Positions 24,169 through 47,923 of a stretch of 64,000 bases of DNA are shown here, one piece after another. Every line of letters starts with the position of its first letter. Position 1 is the stretch's first letter. The stretch covers positions 32,016,012 to 32,080,011 of the forward strand of contig CP154954.1 of assembly GCA_039621445.1 (NCBI GenBank), read 5' to 3'. Made by a program: the position numbers and the translations under genes. A model generated the notes under the pieces. The model was given only the letters and a program-made list of their open reading frames with translations. It was not told the DNA's origin and ran no database searches. This stretch comes from Euglena gracilis. Its lineage: Eukaryota.

Positions 24169-24639
24169 GGCAGACAACCCTGGGGGTGGGGGGTGAGGGG
24201 GTCCAAGCAAATCGACGTCGCTGCCACCATGGTTGACCAACGACCATAAACATCCATCGCTATCCGGTGTTTCTGTGGTGAAAAGCCCAGAGGAGCCATC
24301 TTGTTGATGGCTCTTCATCAGTAGGTGCCCTCGCTTCACAACAAACTAAATTAGTTCCTTAGACAACAGGGAATGCACTTTTCTTGTTGGGTCACAAAAT
24401 TATGGTAGCTTTTGTGAAAATGCGCAATTTCCATTCTGGAAGCAGGGTGCGCACTTAGGCGGCCGGATTCGCACTTAAACGTTTTTTTTGAAATTTGCGC
24501 AACTACGCAAATCCACAATTTTTACGAAACCCCTGGGACCCTGCACCCTGCCCGCCGAAAAAAAAAATTGTAAACGCGAATGTAACTCGTTAGGTTTGAA
24601 CAATTCGAACCCCTTCTAATACAAATGATATGTACAAAT

Positions 24640-25200
24640 GATATGCATCGAGCCAGCAGGATGGCCAGCACTGCTGCGTCAGCAGACGCGCGACGGCCTG
24701 CGGCCAAGGAGGTGGCAGCGACCTCCACACCGCGATGGGGACCCCGGCCAGACCCGGCGCAGCACCTTCCCGCATCAAACGCAGGGCCGCAGACACCTGT
24801 GTTGCAGTCCAGGGTGAGGAGGGCCATGTGGCGACAGGTTGTAGGTACCAAAGCCGAGCCGATGAACGCCCTCCAGCGCTCCTCTTCATCTAGCCCCGCA
24901 TGTTTCCGCAGCATCTGGTCGACCCAGAAGGCGCGCACAGCCCCATCCACAGCCGCCGCGGTGAGGCACTGCTGCCCCAAGGCGTCCAGGACAGGGCACG
25001 AGCCCCACGGCACCCGCAGCCAGCGTTGGATGACACCCAGGTCCTCCTTCCACAAGCGGGGCAGCGCAGCCTTGAACCGCTTGCAACGCTCCGCCCGATG
25101 ACATCGTAGGAGGGCTTGCAGGTCTGGGAGTCGGGCAGAGATGGCGTTCTGCACTGCCGCTGCCAGCACAGCCACCGGCACTTCCCGCGGCAGGGACACC
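24640..25200 (-). mobile_element. Non-LTR retrotransposon (LINE) fragment, region N-terminal to and including RT domain 0
   Basis: QVSAALRLMREGAAPGLAGVPIAVWRSL...WPSCWLDAY resembles the (K)APGxDG and P-x-x-W LINE motifs; frameshifted. Confidence 0.65.
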
Positions 25201-25921
25201 CACGGCGCTCCGGGTCATCGAGCAGAGCCATCCAGTGGTGGCTGCTTCCCTATTCCAATAACCTAATAATATGCCTAAATTGAATAAAGTGTCATTGACC
25301 ACTTTCACTAGTTCTTTGTGCTGAATCCCACGGCTGGCCCCCTTTGCACTCCATGAAAGCGCACCCCAGCACGTACCAATTTCCTCCTCGCCCAATTGTG
25401 CTTGCACATCAATGTATTTGCGAAGGAACCCCCTTGCACACCTTTGTGTTTGGAAGAAGCCACCAAAGATGATACTTTTCACCTGCACTTCTACCCCGCA
25501 AAAAAGTACACCACATATTGTCAGATCCTTCACAAATACAAAACGCTCCCTTGGGAAAATCCTGAAATTACCTGCAAGCAGTCATTGCTTTCGCACATTT
25601 CGCCTCACTCACCTATCCTCAAAATTTACGTGTAAAATGCACAACTCACCAACATTCAATATTTGCTTCTCTTGACTGTTTGATGTTTCGGTGAATGCAA
25701 TGTAGTTTCCTATTCAGATTGTTCAGTGGTATCCTTCTTCTGTTGTAGTGATCTGTTCAAAAATTATTTTGTTGAGTTGGGTTTGGGATTTTGTTGGGTT
25801 GCGGAAACGGAAAACGGCTTCTTTGCATTCTCCTGTTTTATTTTCACAGGGTTCCTTCCATCATCTCCAAACGACGCAGTACTTTCAACCAGACCTCTTC
25901 CAGAAACCTCAAAAAAAAAAA

Positions 25922-35154: not shown

Positions 35155-37782
35155 CCTGTCACTTTGTCACTTTTTTCCCTTAAAAAAAGCCCCATGGTGG
35201 AGGAGAGTGTTTGGCAGCTGAGTAAATTGCACACCGAAGGAGCCATTGCAGGTAGTGTTTGAGGTCGTGTTTGATGTGTTCTGTCTTTTAATTTACTATC
35301 GTGGTCGGTGTGCGCAAATGCGCACGTCGTCATGGTGTGCCCATTTCGCACTCCGACGACGTCCATCTTTACACATGTGGTCGGTGTTTGAAAATGTGTA
35401 AACGCCGACCACGTGCGCATTTGCGCAAACTGACCACTTTTTTTATTCTCACCTGGTACTTGATACAGGTGTTTTTCAGTGCGTTTCTGTCTGTTTTCGG
35501 AGCAAAGCTGCGTTGTAAGCTCTTCCAGTTATTGTTGTTTCAAAAGGCTCTAGGCAGCGAGGTCAGTTTACAGTCCATGATATTTGACCCTTCTCATAAA
35601 TGGACGTGAGGTCTGTTTGCGCAAATGCGCACATGTGGTCGATGTGCGCATTTGCGCAAACCGACCTCATCATCTGCCCAAAACTCACGGTATTTGTCAC
35701 ATCAATTTCAGAAGTGTGAATTATCTGGTATTTATGGCCGTTCTTCGGGGGAACTGTACAATGGTCGATGGGCGAAATTGCGCACATCGACCTTCTTTCT
35801 TTGTTCAACAAAATCCCCAGGCACGCCTTCCTTTCTGCGTTCTTGGCCGGCGGTGTGATTGGACCCACCCTAGCCCCCCATGCTTGTTCCCCGCACTCCG
35901 GCAAACGTCCAAAGGCACAAATCCGAGGCCGGCGAAAACAAAAAGTGCGCCAAAACCCCCGGAGGGAGCCAGTCAGGGTCGCCAAAAGCCGGCGAGGAGA
36001 GCTGCATCGCACAAAAAGGAGGGAGGCGGTACTGGGGTTTTGCTGATTTTGCCGGTTGATATTTCATTTAGGGGGGTAGGTCCGGGGGTTTTCCTGGCAT
36101 GCCGACCACCAAAAAAGCAGCTAAAAAACAAAGCAATTTGTGGGACCGCTGTGGCCAAAAATGTAAATTCTGCCGGATTCATTGTCCACCTGTCGCCTCG
36201 CGCTCTCCCCCTTGCAACGCCGGTGCCAAAATCAAAAATTTGGTCGGTTTGCGCAAATGCGCAAATCGACCAAAAACCCTTAAGTGCGAGATGCACTGCC
36301 TAAGAGGGGGAGTTATAAATGTGGGGGGTTTATAAGTGGGAGGGTTCCCCTTTAACCAGCAAGAATCTGGCCAACTGCTGTGCACCGCAACTGATGAGAA
36401 GCCCATGGCTGTTGGAGTCAGACTAAATTTGACCAATCCCATGGGAGGGGGGCCAGACAATTTTTTTTCGACCCCCAAGCGGGGTCACTCCCACTCTTCC
36501 CAAAACCAGTCAATCACTGTTTTTTTTTTGGAAAATCAGTCAGTCACTACCTCCCCCCCCCCGCTACCCCCCCCGGGGGGGGGGGTCGTCACTCTGAAAT
36601 CCAAAAAGGAAAATTGACCACAAATGTGAAAAAAAGCAAAAAAAATTCCGACGCCTTCGGGGCCAGGTCACTGGAATGGTTTTTTTGCCAACCCCCCCCC
36701 CCGGGGGAGGGGGTCCGGGATGAAAACTAGTCAATCATTCTGAAAAAACCAGTCGTCTCCCCCAGGGGGGGGGTCGGCCAGTGACTAAATGATTGTACGA
36801 GGGGAGGCACAAAGCGCAGGAAATACTTTTGGGGGGTCGTCAGGGCTGTATGGGAGGCCTGGCGGGGGGGGGGGTCGGACCCTCCACCCGGGAGGTGGGG
36901 GGTTGGGTCGACACCCCCCACCCACCATGGCACCTGCTCAAAGAGAATTCCTTTCGCGCCGAAAAAAAAACGGTGCCCCCGAAAATATGGGAAGGCCTGG
37001 GGGGGGGTCGGACTGGTCGCACCTACGTGGAAAATCGCCACAAAAATATTATTCATTCCTGGAGGATCTGGCACAGCAGTGCCTGGACCAACGTTGGCCG
37101 TGTCCAACTCCCCTGGGTGGTGTCGGTGTGGGTGTCAGAGTGCCTGTCCAAGCAGGTCCCCCAGGATGGGGTCGGTCTCACGTTGAGCCTGGTCGGAACC
37201 TCGACATAATTGTCATGCCGTCACGGGTGACAGATGGGAGCACGTCAAACAGGGGCTGGAAAGGAGGCCGCCAACACGTATCTCTTCGTTCGGAGACGGA
37301 AGAGGTGGAGGTGGGGACAGCAATGGAACTGGGAACTGGGACAGAAGGCGATTCAGGGGCCGGAAGCAAGCACTCTGCAGGACGCCAACACTGTGGCAGG
37401 CAATGGTGACGGAAGAGACCTGAGGCAGAATTCCGTGGAAACAACGCGGCCTGCTTCCGTGGCAGGGTGGGGGAGAGACGCAACCCAGGAGGATGACACC
37501 AGTTTTGACTAACTGGCACAGGCTTCTATGGTAGGAAATGTGTTCCAACCGGGCTTCTTTTTACCAACCCCAGGGGGGAGGAGGGTGCCTTGTCCTATGG
37601 GCTGCCTGCCCTTAGCAGGCACACACCCCAGGGAGGGTCACTTGCCGACCCAGGCAAATTTCCCTTGAAAATGGCCATTTACGGGTCTCCGGCGCCGAAG
37701 GCATTGGGGGTGTGCTACAGGGTGTGCTACTACCAGTGGGGTCGAAATTGCCCTACCACCCTACCTGCCCACAGCACCTCCG

Positions 37783-38528
37783 TAGATGCACTTTGGCTTC
37801 CGTCTGGTTCAAGGCCTGGCGCTGCATTCCGCTTCTGGCCCTTTCTTCGGAGCAACTCCCAATAATTGTCCAACCCCATATTCACTGGGACTGCAAACTT
37901 CCGTTTTTGTGTTTTCCTTGCAATTCACCTCTCCCTTGGGTTTTTGGCTTATCTTTCCTACACTTGCTGCTGCCGCCGCTTCTGTTGCTGCTCGATTTCG
38001 TTCCCAAGAGGTGTTTACGGTGGTAAGGGGCCTACTCCTCCACTGCATGCCAGCGGGTACCGGTGTCACCGGCAGTGGGCCCTTTTTACCACCACGGCCC
38101 TCCGGGTCCCCCTGGGAAGGAAATACTTTCCGCCGCTGCTTGCTGGGCTGCTGCTGCTACTGCTTCCCTGACTCTTTGGACCCCCTCTGGGCTCTGTGCT
38201 CTTGTGGTTCCCAGTTCTTGCGTTGTGTTCTCCCATTGCTGTTCTCAATGGGATGGGCATATGGGCAGGAGGTGGTCCTCCACCAGCATCCCATACCAGA
38301 CTTGCACATGCGCTGTTCCCCCGTGGGTCTGCCCCGCCCTCCCCATGGGGTGCCCTTCTCTGTGGGCTGCACTTTTTGGGTGTATCCCCACCAGTTGGCT
38401 GGGTGCTGATACAGGGTATAGACACTGCTGTCCAAACCAACACGCCTTGCCAATGCTGGGGGGTGTTGGTGTCGGTGTGAATGTGCCCACCTTTGGCGTG
38501 GTTACGTCCAAGCTGCAGTGGCAAAATC
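37783..38528 (-). mobile_element. Solo 3' fragment / pseudo-LTR of the same PLE family
   Basis: Aligns by eye with 41124-41929 in the same orientation and ends at the same TAGATGCACTTTGGCTTC boundary. It keeps an intact CCCH motif, CKSGMGCWWRTTSCPYAH (38253-38306). Confidence 0.85.
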
Positions 38529-41500
38529 GGCTATTTGAGGTGCACATGCCCACAGCACCCCCCGGGGGGTGCGCACTTGACTCTGTATGAACTGTTACAG
38601 CTGCGCCTGATGCCGCAAAATTCTACAATGCCAGAACAGCACAAAATGTATCCACTGTTGAGATTTGCCTCCCAGCTAGTATGGTGTAGGTGGGGAGCGT
38701 ACCAAACGCCCACTGGAGGAGTTGGAGACACACACACTCAGGGAGAGAGGGCACATATACTATTATTCATCTGAGATGAATCTTAGATGTGTGAAGACTG
38801 TTGGCTGTGGCGTATTAATAATTATGATGGGGGGGACAATAAGGGGGGGGGTAATTACACCCCCCCACAAGGGTACAAAACTACCCCCCTAAAAAGTTCA
38901 CATCCCCCAAAGGAGAAATCACTGTCACATCTCAGGTCAGAAAGACACACACAATTCTCAGAACTGTCCTTCTCGGACCAAATTTTTCTATCGTCCAAGC
39001 CCAAAACTTTGACAGATAATCACTTGACTTCTTGCTTGACATTACAAGAAGGAGAAAAAATGGAAAGAGTGGTGCAAAATCAAGTATTTTGTGCTTTGCC
39101 CTAATAAGTGCGCAGTGCCCTAATAAGTGCGCACCCCTTGGGGTCCAAAATACTTCCTTAAAATGCACACAGCCACACAGCACTTATTCGGGGGATTTTA
39201 CAATCCGTTTTATGTTTCTAATGTTGTGGGTTGGTGGGGCCTTCTGTTTAACTCAGCAGACCTCCCCTGTGTGGGGGTGGGTGGGTGGGTGGGTGGGTCT
39301 GGGGCTGGACCCCCCCCCAACATGGGTGGTCCCAGACCGGGCTTCGGTGGGTGGGGGAACTCCCCTCTCCTCCTGGCGCCAGCAACACAAAAAAAAAACC
39401 ACCAAACAGTCTTCAAATAAATCAGGAGGGAGGGGCCCCACAAAGCTAAATGAATGTGTGGTTGAGTGCCAGGGCTTGAAGTCAGCCAACCCCTCCCCAG
39501 GCTTTCCCTGAGCCAGTTTGAGGGCTAACTTTGGGGGAATCGCTTATGTGTCAGGTGCACAATGATATCTGATTATATACTTTGGTGGCCAAATTCTAAA
39601 TACTATTCTGATATGTCCAATTGTTTGGGGGCCAATTGGGGGGAGGGGAAATATTCTTCCTGTAATAAGACGGGCCCATTTAACCACAAAAGAGATGCCA
39701 GCGAAGGGAAAGAAACAACACTCTCAGGGGAAGAACCACGGAGACAGATTGATATGAGCTGCACATCCAAAAGGTTTTGGACGTGCAGCCCTCCTTTTAT
39801 TTGTTGGGAATGGCCGGATCACAACCCAATCTCTTCCATGCTGCGAAAACCTTGGTGAAATCGTCTGGATTTGTCACTGAAAGTGCTTGGCCTGGAGGTG
39901 GCAAGGGGGTGGGGGTTCCCCTCAAACGGGGGGGGGGGACAACAGCCCGGGCCATCGAGCCTGCCAGCAGGGCCAATGGCCTGCTCAGAACAAGCACTGA
40001 ACCCACGGCAGAACGCAGCCGTCGAGGGCAGTGCAGCCGGGGCATCCACTTGATACCGATGGCGGGTGGGCGGGCACACTGGCTGTTTGCATGACCGGAG
40101 GGTGATCCATCAACCGCACCCTGCGTTGGGGAGAACACAGTGCCGCATGGGAAAGGCAGCAGCGCAAGTCAAAAGCAGAGCCCAACTTTCGTTGTAAATC
40201 CGCATTAAGCTCGGGGAGGGACCCTGAAGTATTTAAAAAAAAAGCAGTCAGTGACTGCATAAGGGGATCAGTCAGTCACTCGTCCACCTGTGGGGTAGTG
40301 AATACCAGCAATATTCCAATGTTGTGTGCGGTATGTTGTATGGCCTGGGACGATGCGGCTGGCGTGCGGCGGCGGTCGGGGTTCGACCCACTTCTGCAGG
40401 AAGTGCACCGCAGAGGAAGGGGGTGGCCTCTGCTAGGGCACAGGGAGGGGGGCTGCTCTCCCAGACCCCACTGCAACCCAGCCAAAATCAGGAAGCAACC
40501 CTGTGTCCATGTCCAGAAAGGACATCGCCATCGGCCATGGGAATCTCCAATGTCCACATGCGTTCTGCCAATTCTTCCAATTCTTTCCCCATTGCTTCAG
40601 CGTGTGGGTGCATCATCAGGAATGCAGAATGGTCGATGGAAAATGTTTTTGATGTTCGGCTCTATGATCCATATCTCAATTACCTCCCTGAACACCGAGG
40701 CGTGGCAAATGAACAGGGGCAAACAGGTCATAAAAAAAATCATACACATACACACTCAATAGCCCGCAAGGTTTTTGGAAGCAAAGCGCACGGCAGCAAC
40801 TCTGGCAAACACAAATGGGAGGTCGCGGAACCCCTTGGTGCAGGGGAGCCGGGGCTCCGCTGGGAGGACAAAGGTGATGGCGTTCCGCCGCTCCTTTGGC
40901 GGAGGGTGACCCTGGGCGTCCGGGGAATGGACCATCTCCTTTTCCTCCTGGAGAAGCAGGCGGCGGTTGATGGTGCAGGCAGGCGGTGCCGCATGCACGC
41001 ACACGCAAAAGCACACCACCAGAATGCTGTTTGTCCGGAAAACAAAACAATTTAAATTACGAATAACTGGAGGAATAATTTAATAATTTATTTTGCAGTG
41101 CAGGGGGTAACTGAAAAACCCCCTTAGGTGCACTTTGGCTTCTGTCTGGTTTAAGGCCTGGCGCTGCATTCCGCTTCTGGCCCTTTCTTCGGAGCAACTC
41201 CCAATAATTGTCTGACCCCATATTCACTGGGACTTCAAACGTCCGTTTTGTGGTTTCCTGGCCCTTCCCCTCCCCTTTGAGCTTTTGGCTCCCCTTTCTT
41301 GCTGCTGCTGCTCTGCTTCTGTTGCTGCTCGATTTCATTCCCAAGTGCTGCTCGGGGTGGTAAGGGGTCTACTCTTCCATTGCGTGCCAGCGGGTGCCGG
41401 TGTCACCGGCAGTGGGTCCTTTTTACCACCACGGCCCTCCGGGTCCCCCTGGGAAGGAAATACTTTCCGCTGCTGCTTGCTGGGCTGCTGCTGCTGCTGC

Positions 41501-42604
41501 TGTTTCCTCGACCCTTTGGACCCCACCTGGGTTCTGTGCTCTTGGTGTGGTTCCCAATTGTTGTGTTGCTGTCTGCGTCGTTGTTCGCAATTGGATGGGC
41601 ATGATGATGAGATCGTGCTCTTGGTTTGGTTCCCAGTTCTTGCGTTGCGTTCTGGTGGTGGTGGTGGTTATGGGATGCTGGTGGTCCTCCACCAGCATCC
41701 CATACCATACTTGCACATGCGCTGTTCCCCCGTGGGTCTGCCCCGCCCTCCCCATGGGGTGCCCTTCTCTGTGGGCTGCACTTTTTGGGTGTATCCCCAC
41801 CAGTTGGCTGGGTACTGGTACAGACACTGCTGTGCAAACCAGCACGCCTTGCCATTGCTGCGGGCGTTGGTGTCGGTGTGGGTGTGTCCACCTTTTGTGT
41901 GGTTACCTCCAAACTGTGGTGGCAAAATCAAGGCGGGTGGTTGGGAGTGTGTGTAGAAGTTGATTTTCCGGTGCCTCGGACTGTGGTCCAGCCTTCGGCA
42001 CTGTTTGGTTTGTTTTGCTAAACGGGTTGGTGCCATTTCTGATGGGGCTGGCTGCCTCCAGGAGCTTGTTGGGCACTTGGTGCATGCCCCGGCTCTCGCC
42101 TTTTTTTTGTCCCCAGGGACCCCCTTTGGCTGTGACCGGAGGACCACGGTTCTCGGCCTCGCCTATCCGCTCCCCTTCCTTCCAGTCGTGGCTCTCCTCT
42201 TTTGCTGCCATTTCTGTGTCCCCATCAGAAGAGAACCTCTCTTTGCCTGACGCCCTCGCCTGGCGCCTCATATTCTGTTCTCTGTGCTCTGTTTGTTCAC
42301 TCTGGTACCATTGAGGTTGGGTCCTGGTGCGTGTGCTTTTCCTGGGCCTGCTCTGCAACAGTACCTCGGTTTCCACCCATGCCAAACCGATGTGCTGCCA
42401 CTCGGCCTCCTCCTCCAGCTGTATGCGCAACACGCCCTCCTCTCCCAAACCACAATGGCGTTGCAGGTCTTCTTCTACCAGCAAGATGTTGAGCTGCCCG
42501 CCTCCAGCAACCCAGAATGCCCAACACCTCGCCAATCGGTCTTTGTTGTGTTTTGTACCACCACGCTTCTCTGTCTCCACCCCTTTCTCCCTCTCCCGTT
42601 CTCC

Positions 42605-42750
42605 TCTTTTGCTCTCTTTGGGTGACATTCCGGGTGGATCAGAAAGCTCTCTTCCCCCTTGTGCTGTGGCTGTGCTGCTCACCCAGGCACTCCCTGGTAA
42701 CTGTTGCAGTCAACTCTCCTGTCCTGTGAAAAACCTCATCCTCCAGTCTT
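42605..42750 (-). pseudogene. Second, degenerate J-domain copy
   Basis: The DNA CGGGTGGATCAGAAAGCTC and TGTTGCAGTCAAC recur from the first J-domain. It translates across frameshifts as ELTATVTRECLG...SFLIHPECHPKRAKE. Confidence 0.6.
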
Positions 42751-43199
42751 TCTCCGCTGGCCCCCTCTGTTCTCGGCACCCTTGGAAATTTGTTTTCTCT
42801 CTTCTGCCACTCTCTGGTCCGGCTGCTCCTCCGTCTTCTTCCACGCAGCACCCGCAGTGGGGCACCTTCAGTCCCCCCCTGGGGCTTGACCCCCGGCACA
42901 CTCGCCTCCCTCGTCGAACCTCCCTTTTGGCGCACCACTGCGCCCCCCCCCATGGCCTCCGGTTGCCTCCTGCCATAGTCTTCCTCTTCTCCCCATGTTC
43001 CGGCCCACCCTCCAGTCCTTCCCCTCCCCTGCGCCCTCTCCCGTTTCCTCCCATTGCCACCCCTCCCTCTCCACCTTCCCCAACACAGCGCCTTCTCCTT
43101 CCACCCCATTGCCTCTACAGCTGCACTGACCCCCCACCCCCAGCCCCCCGTGCCCCCCCCCCCGTCCCCCGGGGTTGGTAATGGTGCCACCTTCTCTGT

Positions 43200-43383
43200 C
43201 ATCCACCCAATCCTTTTCATCTCCCAGCTTCTGAAAAGCCTCTTTGCTCTTTGGGTGGGAACATTCATCCGGGTGGATCAGAAAGCTCATCCTCTTGTAA
43301 ACTGCCATGCAGTCCTGGCTGGGGGTGGTTTCTCGGACCCCCAGGGCTTGCCACGGAGTTGTTGCAGTCAACACTCGTGTCAC
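43200..43383 (-). pseudogene. DnaJ J-domain with intact HPD inside the PLE
   Basis: TPWQALGVRETTPSQDCMAVYKRMSFLIHPDECSHPKSKEAFQKLGDEKDWV; HPD at 43267-43275. Confidence 0.85.
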
Positions 43384-43599
43384 TGCTGCGCTCTACAAAA
43401 CTCATCAACAACTCCACGTCGTCATCAATGAAAACATTGCCCTGGCGACTAGCTTTCTCCCTCCTGATCTTTGCTCTGCGCTTCTGCACAGCTTTCTGGT
43501 AAGCTTCGGCTTTGTTCTCAGCCCTGGTTGGCACCATTAGCAGTGGTTTCCTCACCTTCAAGTGGGTTGTGTGGTGGCTCCTCTCTGGATCCGGGCTTC

Positions 43600-44020
43600 C
43601 GTCTATCATGATCGCGTCGTAATGACCCCTGTTTTGGTGGAACACCACCCGCCTGAGGGGACCTCTGGAGCCATGTTGTGTGCACTCTTGACAATGGTCA
43701 CCATGGTCCAGAAACACCCGCAGTCTGAATTTCAAGACAGGAGGCAACAAAGCCAGCTCCGGTTCTTCAGCCCAATGGATATGGCTGACCACTGATGCCA
43801 AATATCCCTCCTTGTCCCAGTCCAGGGTTGTCAGGGTTTGTCCTACCGACATTCCCGAACCCGGGATCTCTGTATCCCATTCCTCCCTGACATAAGCTGC
43901 TTACTTTGCGTACTTTGCATACTTTGCGGCGCAGTTCCAGTGCCACGGTGCCCTCGTTAGACACGGCAGCGCAATGGAACAGACATGACCCATCGGGGCT
44001 GCTAGCCACAGGGTTGCTTG
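43600..44020 (-). pseudogene. OTU-family cysteine protease (deubiquitinase-like) domain inside the PLE
   Basis: Cys box SSPDGSCLFHCAAV (~43960-44000) is followed by ALELRRKVC. After a frameshift come EGYLASVVSHIHWAEEPELALL and the His box VVFHQNRGHYDAI (~43611-43650). Confidence 0.8.
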
Positions 44021-44092
44021 GTTCTTCCTGACTACTTCCCCGCTGTGCCCACAGCAGCGTTGGCGTGCAGGGTGCTGACGGACTGGCACCTT

Positions 44093-44146
44093 GTGCTGGA
44101 ATGGGCACCCAACTTCTTGGTACAAACACCCGCTTCCAAACCGGCA
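44093..44146 (-). other. CCCH-type zinc finger (C-x5-C-x6-C-x3-H) in frame after the RT thumb
   Basis: CRFGSGCLYQEVGCPFQH in ORF 43901..44971. Confidence 0.7.
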
Positions 44147-44199
44147 CAATTTCTTTGCAAATGGGACAGCTTTGCTGTGCTCCTTGCCCTCCTTCTGCA

Positions 44200-45840
44200 C
44201 TTGCAGCCTCACCACACAAGTCATTTTGCGGAACCACGAACGCAGCTCCACCCGCCGGATTTCTTCCGCTTTCCACCAATCAGCAAGGAATTTGCTCCAC
44301 ATGCGGTCCAGTTCATGCCTAAAATACCCCCTACGGGTGGCTGCCAGGACAATGCCCTGCACTGCAAATTTGAACATTTGCAGCGTAGAGCACAGCCTTT
44401 GTGCTCTGATGAACTGGCCAGTGAGGACCCCTAAGCGCTGGGAGTCTGCGACCATTGACCCTGCCCCTGGGTACCTCCTGATTCGGATTGGGTACGTGCA
44501 ATCTCTGAAATGCATTCCGGTGAAGAACTTCATTTCCCCCGTGTGCACTAGCAGGAGCCACTTGAGGACCATTCCGAGGTACACAGATTCTCCATCATTG
44601 GTCTTTGTGTATTTGTACTGCATGCCATACTGCTCTGCAGTCGGGATGCATCCGGAAAATGAATGAATATCATCAATGAAACGGTAATTGTGCTCCATTT
44701 CCTCAAGTGTCTTTGTGGCGTCAAAACCTCTCTCAACAGGGTAGCAGTCCAGGTTGGCAATTTGGGGTGCACACGCCAACCCCATCCCAAACCCTTTCAC
44801 CTGCTTCAGCAGCGTGCTTCCCCTCTTGATGAACCCAGTGTCAATCACAAATTGCACCATTTCCAACACCTCCTCCTTTGACAAGCATCCAGAAGCATCC
44901 TGTGCTGCTTCCTCTGGCATGAGGTGCACCCACCTGTCTTTCCTTGCCCGCAGCTGGTGCCTCGCTTCCAATCTCTTTTCCTCCCATTCCCAAACCCACA
45001 GATCGCATCCCTGAGCCTGTCCTTCAACAACATCTGGTCAAATGAGGGGTACATTGTTACAAAATACACCGTAGTTGCCATTGCGCCCCGTTTGGCCACA
45101 TCTGTGACTTCAAAGCGCAACGGCTGTGCCACCTCCCCGACCGATTCAACAAACCAGCATGCCTTGGCCAACCCTTTCCTGCGGTTGTGGGCGTCCTTGC
45201 TTCGGAGTGAATGCATCACTTGTGTGTGCACACCCACCAACTCCTTGCCGGCGCCTGCAATGGACCCTTCTGGCTCTGTGTTTTCCTTTCGTTTTTCCTC
45301 CTCCTTGTCTTTTCTCACACCGCTTATCCACTGCAGGTTCCTTTTGGCAGATTTCCAGATTCCATAAATGTGTGCCTGTTGGGCTGCAGCCCTCTCTTTT
45401 CGAGGAAATCCCAATGCCTTTGGGTCAGGGCTTGTGGGTCTTCCTTGTCCACCTGAAAGGTGTGCCCCCACATATATCTGTACGTGTACATGGCCACCCC
45501 AACATGCGGTGCCCAGTCTTCCTTCAGAAACACCAAATGCTCTTGGATGGCCCGGATTTCTTTCTGGCCCATGTCTCCTGTGGGGAACATGGCGTTGTCA
45601 GAGCCTGTGAGCTTCTCCTTCACTCTCTGGATGATTGACAATTTCCAGGCTTCAAAATCTATAGGGTCTCCTCCCCTTTTCATCATTTACTGGATACAGC
45701 CCCTTTCCTAACTCCTGCAGCAAGGTCTCAGCCCTGTGTTCCAGCTTGTAGGCTTGCCCCTTGATCAACAACCCATTTACAAGCGGACTGTTGAACTTCC
45801 TGACATCTGCGGTGCCGATATGTCCTTTCCACACATCTTC
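44200..45840 (-). pseudogene. Reverse transcriptase domain (Penelope-like), frameshifted
   Basis: Split across ORFs 45652..45843, 45324..45686, 44845..45471 and 43901..44971. Motif A reads TTVYFVTMYPSF (catalytic Asp position is Tyr, 45064-45066). Motif B is QVKGFGMGLACAPQIANL and motif C is FIDD (44669-44680). The thumb reads GVLTGQFIRAQRLCS. Confidence 0.92.
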
Positions 45841-46339
45841 CACCCGTGGATGAAGGATATGACAGAAACTTTTGGGGTCTTTCTCACCGTTGATGTTTTC
45901 CCAGTTAAGAGTTCGGCTCTCTGTTTCGCGGTGAGGTCCTCATCTTCAAGCGCAGTGTAATTCAGCAACCAGCTGCCAATGGGTGGAACTTTGCGTTCGC
46001 ACACCCAAATGCGTTCTGCTGCTGTTCGGTCTGGGTGCAACTTGCAAACCTGCAATTCCCGGATCACTTTCCTCACCTCTGGTGCGTTCCATCCTTTGTG
46101 GGTGATTAGCAATTTCACAAAATCTCCTTTGGGCTTCTTCTTGAGCTCCTTGTGTCGCTTGAGCTCCTCCCGCACCAAACGCTCCAGAAAAGAGGTGATG
46201 GCGTCACAAATATCCGTCACCCACTGTTTCGCATCTGCCAGTCCTCTTTCCGACTTGCTGTACCACTCTCGGTGAAAATTTTCTCGGTGGGTGTTCCAAT
46301 CCGCCTTTACACCACCTTTATGGTACCCGCCAGTGCTCC

Positions 46340-46640
46340 CCAGTTGAAGCCCCGCGGCCACCAGGTGCCCAGGAAAGATGCCCACCAGCCCTCTCGATGG
46401 GCAGCTTTCTTGTGAAACTGTTTGTGCCTTTCTCGGCGTCCTGGGAACCTCTCCACTGGCCAACAGATCCATTCAAAAGCACTGGAGCTGTTGCGCATCA
46501 TCATGCTGATGGGGTCAGTCTCCCGGTTTTGACACCCCCAATGTGTTTTCATGCGCTCTTGCGCACCATGGTGGGCCAGGCCCACGTACCCCTTCCCTGA
46601 AGGCAAATGGTGCATGTAATAGATCTCTGAGATTGTGCCA
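46340..46640 (-). pseudogene. GIY-YIG endonuclease domain of the PLE
   Basis: ORF 46307..47008 reads SEIYYMHHLPSGKGYVG (GIY-x10-YVG), then ERMKTH (conserved Arg), HREGWW (conserved Glu) and PRGFN (conserved Asn). Confidence 0.85.
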
Positions 46641-46899
46641 GAATCCCTTCCTTCCACAAATTGCGGGACATGGTGGGAGTCACCATCTGCCCACCACCGG
46701 TGCTGGATGGAGGCCACCTTGGTCTGGACTTCCTTCACGCTCCTTCCTTCCAGATTTTTTACCAGGCACGATGGACCCTCCAGTTGAAAATCTTGAAATC
46801 TTTCCCGGAAAAAAAATGTTTTTTGTCCAAGGGTATGGGAGTGCAATTCTTGGATGTCATGTCCTGAGAGTGCAGGACCCCACGGCTTGCGCGGGTGAT

Positions 46900-47333
46900 C
46901 CCCCTTAGATGCACTTTCGCTTCTGTCTGGTTCAAGGCCTGGCGCTACATTCCGCTTCTGGCCCTTTCTTCGGAGCAACTCCCAATAATTGTCTGACCCC
47001 ATATTCACTGGGACTTCAAACGTCCGTTTTGTGGTTTCCTGGCCCTTCCCCTCCCCCTTGAGCTTTTGGCTCCCCTTTCTTGCTGCTGCTGCTGCTGCTG
47101 CTTCTGTTGCTGCTCGATTTCGTTACAAAGAGGTGCTCGGGGTGGTAAGGGGTCTACTCCTCCACTGCGTGCCGGCGAGTACCGGTGTCACCTGCAGTGG
47201 ACCCTTTTTACCACCACGGCCCTCCGGGTCCCCCTGGGAAGGAAATACTTTCCGCTGCTGCTTGCTGGGATGCTGCTGCTGCTGCTGTTTCCCCGACCCT
47301 TTGGACCCCACCTGGGCTCTGTGCTCTTGGTGT
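46900..47333 (-). repeat. Upstream pseudo-LTR (5'-truncated copy of the element 3' end)
   Basis: Near-identical by eye to 41120-41548. Both share the boundary CCCCTTAG(A/G)TGCACTTT. Confidence 0.85.
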
Positions 47334-47923
47334 ACCCCCCCAGGAGGGGTACTAAAATACACCCCAGGATGGCCAAGCAAAATTTTTTTCCTGTTCACGA
47401 GCTCGGCAATCGCAGATTTTTTTCGGGGGTTTTGACATCAGCAATGATCCTCCACCACCTGCTCCAGCCCGTGTGCAGCTTTGTTGATCGCCCACTCTGG
47501 GCGGAGGCGCGCCGGCAAAAGGCGGGGTCACCGGAGCAGTCGCCAAGGACCGTGGCCGTGGCTGTCGGACAGCGCGCCGGAGGAGGCGGGCCGGCCCGGC
47601 CGCTGGCCCGACACAGATCAAACCACAGCGCCAAATGCGCCGCCCCCCCCCCCCCCGCCCGTTGCCGCCCGGCTTCCACCCGCACCGTCGCCCCCGCAGG
47701 CCTCCGCTCTCCTCCGGTCCCTGGGCGCCTCCCTCATTGTTCCGCCGGGTTGGGAGGCGGGACTGCGTGGGGCCGTTGGACCCGGTCCGGGGGGTCGGCG
47801 ACCGGGGGAGCCGGGGAGGCCTCCGCAGGGCCGGGGGCGCTGGGGCACGAGGTGGGCAGCCCATCGGTTGTCTCTGGAGGGAGGGTCAGGGGAAGAAGAA
47901 ATGCATGCGGTTGCCCTGGGGGG

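Follow-up and report, generated by a model that had tools for sequence, protein, structure and literature searches.

Penelope-like elements (PLEs) with an N-terminal endonuclease (EN) are represented by the Chlamys and Naiad groups (Craig, Yushenova, Rodriguez & Arkhipova 2021, PMC8557442). As the main text of that paper describes them, Chlamys elements have an N-terminal GIY-YIG nuclease with conserved R, H, E and N residues, a CxC motif between the EN and the reverse transcriptase (RT) and an RT resembling telomerase RT (TERT), along with partial tandems forming pseudo-long terminal repeats (pseudo-LTRs), 5′ truncation, a G-run at the junction and no canonical hammerhead ribozyme. The accessory domains named there are PHD, SAP and zf-CCHC, with a Josephin-like protease in Chlamys-1_cBra. 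A Josephin-like cysteine protease is likewise carried by the Dualen non-LTR retrotransposons (Kojima & Fujiwara 2005, cited in PMC8557442). Here we describe a putative Chlamys-like PLE inserted on the minus strand of 64,000 nucleotides of Euglena gracilis DNA (assembly GCA_039621445.1, contig CP154954.1, positions 32,016,012 to 32,080,011 of the forward strand; this whole stretch is called the window below). The element family has all the Chlamys traits just listed, and many of its members encode, in addition, a J-domain coupled to a deubiquitinase (DUB).

The J-domain signature of the window copy lies in an open reading frame (ORF) at 42868–43392 on the minus strand. This begins SAAVTRVLTATTPWQALGVRETTPSQDCMAVYKRMSFLIHPDECSHPKSKEAFQKLGDEKDWVDDRE... 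and encodes helices I–III only, the four-helix J fold being incomplete in it:

43192–43392, minus strand: J-domain helices I–III with the HPD (from the ORF, Pfam DnaJ, phmmer against PDB and BLASTP against the relative P0059)
43356→43336, minus strand: J-domain motif PWQALGV
43299→43267, minus strand: J-domain motif YKRMSFLIHPD, with the HPD at 43275→43267
43245→43225, minus strand: J-domain motif KEAFQKL
43209→43192, minus strand: WVDDRE, the last J residues before an insert

The original prediction, made from the letters of the window, had taken the three named motifs for helix I, helix II with the HPD, and helix III of a J-domain encoded by a retroelement, and the pattern is borne out by three comparisons. 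The Pfam DnaJ profile (PF00226) matches the peptide with E 6.5e-5 over profile positions 3–47 of 63; a profile match is hence at hand, though at 23.4 bits it falls under the curated gathering score of 27.8. A phmmer search of PDB chains returned 34 matches at E ≤ 1, almost exclusively to J-domains, with that of DNAJC27/RabJ (2ys8) at the top (E 9.6e-6). BLASTP against the J-domain of P0059 gives 45 identical residues out of 63 (71%, E 2e-34). Judged by its sequence, the J-domain pattern in the window is real and goes beyond chance. The residue after the HPD is E (HPDE) in the window copy and K (HPDK) in other copies; at position 43266, 10 short-read contigs with 99% of the depth carry the base that gives HPDK.

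Relatives of the window copy carry the same domain within intact proteins. The order in these is GIY-YIG nuclease, CxC linker, telomerase-like RT, CCCH finger, OTU, J-domain, coiled coil and a CCCH-rich tail, and a single ORF runs through RT-(CCCH)-OTU-J in P0002, P0003, P0005, P0011, P0013 and P0014. RT, OTU and J-domain share one frame in these relatives, which upholds the proposal that a retroelement encodes it. Pfam DnaJ matched seven of eight relatives in a first scan, six above the cut-off; P0001 has no match because its ORF stops about 30 codons before the J position. We defined as long-tailed the 38 of 165 proteins with at least 300 residues after the RT thumb, and scanned them with Pfam at E ≤ 0.01: DnaJ is present in 13, with scores of 29.1–70.5 bits (above the cut-off) in 12 and 25.2 bits in P0011. 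A family J hidden Markov model (HMM), built from five seeds and run on the 165 proteins, matches 21 of them; the HPD, whose conservation had been proposed as a check, is kept in 20 of the 20 segments that reach its position, the match in P0068 ending earlier.

Structure prediction, a further proposed check, was run on P0059 and returned a J fold: the J region is modelled with a predicted local distance difference test (pLDDT) of 88–98 and helices at 201–205, 213–226, 237–252 and 254 onward. Its top Foldseek match is the DNAJC27 J-domain (2ys8; E 2.2e-4, TMt 0.64, 33% identity), followed, for the N-terminal half of P0059, by OTUD1 and nairovirus OTU domains. DNAJC27 (RBJ/RabJ; 2ys8, 6jmg) is the closest solved J-domain both by sequence (family profile E 8.2e-7) and by fold (rank 1), and shares with the element J-domain the HPDKC, the proline of HPDKCxxP, an extension before helix I and the EAF of helix III. 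It is, however, a cellular fusion to a Rab-like GTPase, whereas helix IV of the element domain continues, in the P0059 model, into a long coiled coil.

These relatives also bear on a quite different account, in which either a piece or an exon of a host DnaJ gene was by chance picked up or overlapped here and nowhere else, or the whole family is in truth a host multi-domain gene. The window copy by itself would lend this some credence: its J frame differs from the frame upstream, and its Pfam score is under the cut-off. The original prediction had given a missing DnaJ match, or a domain out of frame and unconserved in the family, as the signs of passive capture; a match exists, and the domain is out of frame in the window copy but in frame and conserved across the family. 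Many relatives from other sources have the J type of the window copy in the corresponding position and in frame, and a host gene is hard to square with pseudo-LTRs, a 5′-truncated sister copy and many decayed multi-copy relatives. Cellular J proteins are, moreover, distant. A metagenome scan with the pattern [LIV]HPD[KR]CxH[PQ][RK] gave 557 stretches and 137 relatives, from which 80 loci were kept; these are mostly cellular J proteins, just about 33% identical to the element J region. tblastn with P0003 (E ≤ 1e-5) matched three of the 80 (L001, L002 and L006), in the J region alone, and detected neither RT nor OTU in any of them. Passive capture of a host fragment is contradicted by the in-frame relatives, the direct repeats of the insertion and the HPD in 20/20 segments, and we regard chance capture or a host gene as highly improbable.

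The J-domains of the family are of two types. The divergent type, PW..LGV...HPDKCxHP...EAFQKL..A..W, is found in 9 of the 13 J-bearing proteins, matches the profile partially at 25–42 bits and has DNAJC27 as its nearest relative. The canonical full-length type is found in P0006, P0021 and P0063, at 56–70 bits over profile positions 1–63 or 2–63; P0018 has the canonical sequence pattern, yet scores 30.4 bits over profile positions 7–51. In P0063 the J-domain has DNAJB-type and trypanosome DnaJ chains as its closest matches. The presence of two types suggests replacement or repeated capture. A candidate for the source comes from the metagenome loci: L008 (1117–2340, plus strand), from a marine metagenome, encodes a cellular-looking J protein of 407 aa that reads HPDKCNHP, and L009–L068 share its match pattern. 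Its N-terminal module, ITIHGLNARPDLNGLDGIVL..., is similar to one that directly precedes the canonical J-domain of P0006 and P0018, so that the captured J-domain may have come from a protein built like that of L008.

A deubiquitinase-type domain is present in 26 of the 38 long-tailed proteins, 9 of the 38 having neither DUB nor J-domain. The types are OTU in 19 (10 above the cut-off), USP/UCH in five, JAB in one and a weak Josephin in one. Among the 13 J-bearing proteins Pfam recognizes OTU in eight, JAB/MPN in P0018 and USP/UCH in P0063 (E 1.5e-32); P0003 and P0023 have GDGSC...HYD motifs that Pfam does not match, and P0156 has no DUB motif. J-bearing relatives hence pair the J-domain with one of three unrelated deubiquitinase folds: OTU, JAB or USP. 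We examined these pairings against an RT tree (quick IQ-TREE with Shimodaira–Hasegawa-like approximate likelihood ratio test support, SH-aLRT, only) of 294 columns and 93 rows, namely those covering at least half of the core from 126 proteins with RT matches. All but one of the 11 J-bearing rows belong to a clade of 31 rows (99%); P0021 (OTU with J) and P0063 (USP with J) fall in one clade with 99% support, and the USP-only and Josephin-like members lie in distant clades.

The catalytic motifs of the OTU domain (PF02338), GDGSCLF and HYD, are conserved in the family. Nairovirus OTU domains are the best solved structures by profile (E 4.9e-8), and the fold matches are OTUD1 and viral OTUs. In the nairovirus L proteins (6dx3, 3phw) the OTU is likewise found on the polymerase protein of a genetic parasite; these differ in being N-terminal fusions to the RNA-dependent RNA polymerase of an RNA virus, and are 15–20% identical to the element OTU. 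A second motif of interest lies 3′ of the J-domain and coiled coil: SH[ND]WKEGxR[ILM]GEAxxPGP(P), found in P0002, P0005, P0019, P0028, P0138 and P0156, with the broader pattern W.EG.R.GEA..[PR]GP fitting six proteins. It ends ...GEAxNPGP(P) in four (P0005, P0028, P0138 and P0156) and is degenerate in the window (...GEAENRGPP) and in L001 (...GEATNPRPT). The NPGP recalls 2A ribosome-skipping peptides, the canonical form of which is DxExNPGP; the spacing in the element family, ExxNPGP, is not canonical.

In some RNA viruses an OTU serves as a polyprotein-processing protease. Were this its chief role here, the J-domain and tail would be released, maybe via the NPGP motif, and there would be no action in cis on the RT. 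The conserved Cys and His motifs (GDGSCLF ... HYD), the viral OTUs as closest solved relatives by profile and the GEAxNPGP(P) after the J-domain in four proteins (NRGPP in the window) are all consistent with processing. On the other hand, the departure of ExxNPGP from the canonical 2A form counts against ribosome skipping, and the unrelated DUB folds USP and JAB occupy the same position as the OTU, which points to deubiquitination rather than to a specific cleavage site. Processing as the main function seems to us improbable.

HPD-bearing J-domains dock on Hsp70, trigger its ATP hydrolysis and hand an attached or nearby polypeptide to it. We consider it likely that the J-domain of this Chlamys-like PLE family docks Hsp70 on the element's own protein or ribonucleoprotein (RNP) and that the deubiquitinase shields the same protein. 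The HPD would dock host Hsp70 onto the element's own polyprotein of more than 1,200 residues, or onto its RNP, where the chaperone would help the TERT-like RT to fold, to load its RNA or to be remodelled; the deubiquitinase would remove ubiquitin from the element protein and so shield it from ubiquitin-dependent degradation. J-domain and deubiquitinase together would constitute a self-supplied proteostasis module. Recruitment of Hsp70 in cis for the RT is plausible by analogy with several systems. Assembly of the telomerase RNP needs host chaperones (Hsp90/p23), the hepadnavirus P protein works with Hsp70, Hsp40 and Hsp90, and the J-domain of polyomavirus large T antigen uses Hsp70 to remodel a host complex. 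These resemble the proposed arrangement in their dependence on, or recruitment of, host Hsp70 or Hsp90, and TERT is also the closest structural relative of the element RT (Foldseek, P0020 model). To our knowledge hepadnaviruses and telomerase use host co-chaperones in trans and encode no J-domain; T antigen is not an RT, whereas the element J-domain is fused to the RT polyprotein. We are more tentative about a wider proposal, and lean slightly against it: that a deep TERT-related lineage in Euglenozoa-type protists carries a proteostasis kit, in which the J-domain loads Hsp70 and the DUB is interchangeable (OTU, USP or JAB), and that the J-domain was captured or replaced more than once.

Several observations weigh against the action of the J-domain on the element's own protein. 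The J-domain is absent from 25 of the 38 long-tailed relatives and is hence dispensable for some members; J-less lineages with OTU and PHD exist (P0009, P0010, P0012, P0016, P0033 and P0036), which makes the J-domain an accessory, not a universal part. The DnaJ score in the window misses the curated cut-off, and the assignment of the element to the permuted, N-terminal-EN PLEs of Chlamys-like type is drawn from architecture and motifs. The window copy is a dead element and its J peptide the relic of a functional domain: relative to P0001 there are 10 changes of reading frame on the way from the start codon to the J-domain, and these preclude an RT-J polyprotein. In each of the three nearest euglenid-type copies (the window copy, P0001 and L001) the frame is lost no more than about 35 codons ahead of the J-domain. 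The three losses (window 43386–43420, the C-terminus of P0001, L001 256–437) are at different places and other relatives are in frame. This recurrence could reflect decay, or regulated expression of the J-domain and tail; chance decay alone may not fully explain it. Lastly, in three RNA runs, of which about 5–6% each was read at a likeness of at least 92%, 88, 68 and 118 reads fall on 6.45 kb, mostly on the terminal repeat, with a depth of at most 0.22 in the J bin and the element body nearly empty. The RNA data give no support for expression of the window copy, nor evidence of its silence.

Alternatively, the J-domain and deubiquitinase may act on host machinery and not on the element's RT, for example by Hsp70 remodelling of a host complex, by blunting ubiquitin-based restriction, or in nuclear import or uncoating of the RNP. 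The J-domain is always in the C-terminal accessory region beside DUBs, PHD and CCCH fingers, and its absence from 25 of the 38 relatives, whose RT is otherwise alike, fits an accessory interface better than a core folding need. Against this, the simplest effect of tethering a J-domain to a polypeptide is to bring Hsp70 to that same polypeptide, and a host-directed function names no known host target; the sequence data fit either target. We judge action on host machinery to be unlikely, though it deserves serious weight, and favour the docking of Hsp70 on the element's own protein.

A separate observation concerns RNA run X24, which is size-fractionated: at 46878–46915, 84 and 72 reads match about 37 bases only and, beyond these, carry a common foreign sequence to either side (agreement 0.99). 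The shared flanks indicate that another abundant transcript contains this short piece.

The J-domain of the window belongs to a 6.2-kb minus-strand insertion, 47337→41118; tblastn with P0001 and P0002 covers 47236→41117 as one minus-strand element. Self-comparison reveals a direct repeat, 46900–47333 against 41119–41548, with 94% identity over 434 bp and a spacing of 5781 bp. The 3′ ends at 41118 and 37776 and the internal junction at 46900 coincide, each reading ...AAGTGCAyCTAAGGGGG. Together with the direct repeat, these ends indicate that two units are joined head to tail in the insertion, first a 5′-truncated one (47337→46900) and then a full one (46899→41118), and this is the pseudo-LTR arrangement typical of PLEs. 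The upstream flank of the insertion ends with a G-run. The features other than those of the J-domain peptide are:

46900–47337, minus strand: upstream partial tandem copy (pseudo-LTR), from the direct repeat (94% over 434 bp)
47002→46973, minus strand: ORF start MGSDNYWELL, inside the upstream partial copy
41118–46899, minus strand: full-length element unit, about 5.78 kb, from the repeat spacing, 3′ ends and tblastn
46322–46741, minus strand: GIY-YIG nuclease domain, from motifs and the family profile against I-TevI 1ln0
46627→46607, 46594→46577 and 46558→46538, minus strand: GIY-YIG motifs EIYYMHH, KGYVGL and ERMKTHW, respectively
45679–45936, minus strand: EN-RT linker, site of the CxC in relatives (CxC deleted in the window copy)
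44252–45521, minus strand: reverse transcriptase, from motifs and the match of the P0020 model to telomerase RT
45369→45319, minus strand: RT motif 1/2, IYGIWKSAKRNLQWISG
45063→45034, minus strand: RT motif A, FVTMYPSFDQ
44803→44750, minus strand: RT motif B, QVKGFGMGLACAPQIANL
44686→44666, minus strand: RT motif C, YRFIDDI
44488→44453, minus strand: RT thumb, IRIRRYPGAGSM
44093–44146 (44146→44093), minus strand: CCCH zinc finger, CRFGSGCLYQEVGCPFQH
43610–43994, minus strand: OTU-like cysteine protease/deubiquitinase, from Pfam, profile and fold matches in relatives
43994→43971, minus strand: OTU Cys motif DGSCLFHC, in a shifted frame
43627→43610, minus strand: OTU His motif GHYDAI
42650–43191, minus strand: G-rich insert private to the window copy, interrupting the J-domain after helix III
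42552–42649, minus strand: degenerate second copy of J helices II–III (FLIHPECHP at 42645→42619), from blastn
42575→42552, minus strand: helix IV start DREAWWYK, in a different frame from the J ORF
42137–42193 (42193→42137), minus strand: conserved tail motif, SHDWKEGERIGEAENRGPP; relatives read ...GEAxNPGP(P)
41119–41548, minus strand: terminal 430 bp of the unit, the downstream pseudo-LTR copy, with a second MGSDNYWELL at 41221→41192
37776–38528 (38528→37776), minus strand: separate 5′-truncated copy of the element family, tail and terminal repeat only, about 85% identity

Pfam gave no RT, GIY-YIG or OTU match on the ORF pieces of the window, so that profiles and structure models of relatives were needed for these assignments. 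The CCCH finger is weakly matched: PAN3 CCCH at E 0.089 in the window ORF, and a weak Nab2-type CCCH in P0006. An Rfam scan of 37500–47600 at E ≤ 1 gave no hammerhead ribozyme and one unrelated weak match. Elsewhere in the window, 24522–25581 on the minus strand holds two overlapping ORFs of about 230 aa in a GC-rich stretch, which may belong to another repeat or retroelement.

The damage to the window copy is extensive. The CxC motif has been deleted along with a stretch of about 37 residues, P0001 reading ETCPCFSHILHP where the window reads KS-FCHILHP. The OTU Cys motif is in a shifted frame, and between the OTU and the J-domain that follows it the frame changes, the break lying near 43386–43394; a 170-nt contig spanning the HPD and this break is identical to the window across 43254–43423. 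At position 44996, exactly at one frame change, three of three covering short-read contigs have an extra T, and the window sequence may here have a deletion of its own or an assembly error at a homopolymer. After WVDDRE, a G-rich, low-complexity insert of about 0.6 kb separates helix IV from the J ORF, where relatives have about 20 residues. It is bounded by a degenerate J duplication of about 100 nt, 43288–43187 against 42649–42561, with 74% identity over 106 columns (blastn). Contigs of run X1, which is catalogued 'DNA?' and has the same organism label as the RNA runs, have a summed depth of 0–212 in the bins of the insert (42512–43159) as against 42,490 and 70,177 in the flanking bins. We considered an intron and rejected it: no RNA joint crosses the insert, no DNA contig covers it and a degenerate J duplicate lies at its flank. 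It is read as a private insertion or duplication. Over the element as a whole the summed X1 depth, which is not a copy number, declines from the 3′ end to the 5′ end; it is 42,490 in the J bin and 36,777 in the adjoining OTU bin.

Among 1739 candidates, 19 longer homologues of the window RT ORF were found at E ≤ 1e-3, the best being EukProt EG_transcript_489 (87% identity). An exhaustive phmmer search with P0003 gave 1113 cluster representatives at E ≤ 1e-3, of which 412 are at ≤ 1e-10 and 109 at ≤ 1e-30. The 169 members of one cluster, alike at ≥ 90% identity, are spread over separate contigs as long as 2.3 Mb, the sign of a multi-copy genomic family. P0002 encodes 1436 aa on a 5370-nt contig as a circularly permuted ORF, with RT-OTU-J-tail-CCCH fingers followed by FPIPVQMGSDNYWEPL...; the latter begins the protein of the next unit, so that a single frame is open across the head-to-tail unit junction. 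ESM Atlas neighbours, unnamed or RVT_1-bearing clusters from Streptophyta, Chlorophyta, Cnidaria and Rotifera, serve as a lead only.

Pfam detects neither RT nor nuclease in the closest members; RVT_1 is weak in relatives (best E 1.4e-4), GIY-YIG is weak in P0075, P0106 and P0131, and the family profile finds no significant RT match in PDB (best E 0.26 and 0.39). The RT is, however, revealed by the AlphaFold2 model of P0020 (63-sequence alignment, pLDDT 85.8, predicted template-modelling score 0.81): telomerase RT takes Foldseek ranks 1–14 (E 8.1e-10 to 1.7e-6), with group II intron RTs ranking next. Helices modelled at H87-113 and H127-143, between motif 2 and motif A, would fit an insertion-in-fingers domain. 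For the nuclease, family profile A3 matches the I-TevI GIY-YIG catalytic domain (1ln0, E 1.6e-4) in an alignment spanning GIY, YVG, R, H, E and N. The consensus of a 24-sequence alignment reads GxIY...YVGQT...R...HW...E...N, then CPC, then PLE-style RT motifs; in the CxC of these 24 relatives C432 is invariant and C430 is present in at least 90%.

Set beside the main text of PMC8557442, the window element has a length within the 3.3–8.2 kb range of Chlamys and Naiad. In P0001 residues 1–235 hold four isolated cysteines, with no CxxC pair and no CCHH finger; an EN region with neither CCHH nor CX2-5CxxC fingers is as in Chlamys and unlike Naiad (PMC8557442, main text). The DK(G) motif given there for Chlamys and Naiad corresponds to DR(A) in the window family, which further differs in its accessory OTU/USP/JAB and J-domains, its CCCH-rich tail and its Euglenozoa-type hosts. 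Dualen, according to the passage on it in PMC8557442, is similarly a retrotransposon with a cysteine protease of deubiquitinase type, whose presumed effect is to interfere with protein degradation; its RT class and endonucleases are different, and that passage reports no J-domain. Membership extends to Diplonema papillatum, where a distant family member is annotated 'ubiquitin carboxyl-terminal hydrolase 26'; the P0092 cluster (D. papillatum KAJ9462022.1 and others) consists of RT+USP members filed under such a host-gene annotation. The word 'Penelope' is absent from the main text of the Diplonema genome paper. Annotations of this kind thus hide transposon proteins.

PHD fingers, chromodomains, methyltransferases and Josephin are known accessory domains of retrotransposons. 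We found no retrotransposon encoding a J-domain in the literature, nor a J-domain in a PLE or a PLE in Euglena, although the supplements of PMC8557442 may hold relevant elements; its main text contains none of DnaJ, J-domain, OTU, chaperone or Euglen-. What is new is a Chlamys-like PLE lineage with a DUB and J-domain accessory module, which extends permuted Penelope-like elements to Euglenozoa. The retention of the J-domain, the invariance of its HPD, and its occurrence with three DUB folds and in two J types argue for selection on the element to manage its own folding and turnover. As its RT is closest to that of telomerase, a chaperone-dependent enzyme, a self-supplied co-chaperone would offer a genetic handle on this dependence. 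Should retrotransposition turn out to depend on the J-domain, no earlier retrotransposon with a co-chaperone of its own would be known, and the element would be a small, self-contained setting in which to study the chaperone requirement of TERT-like RTs.

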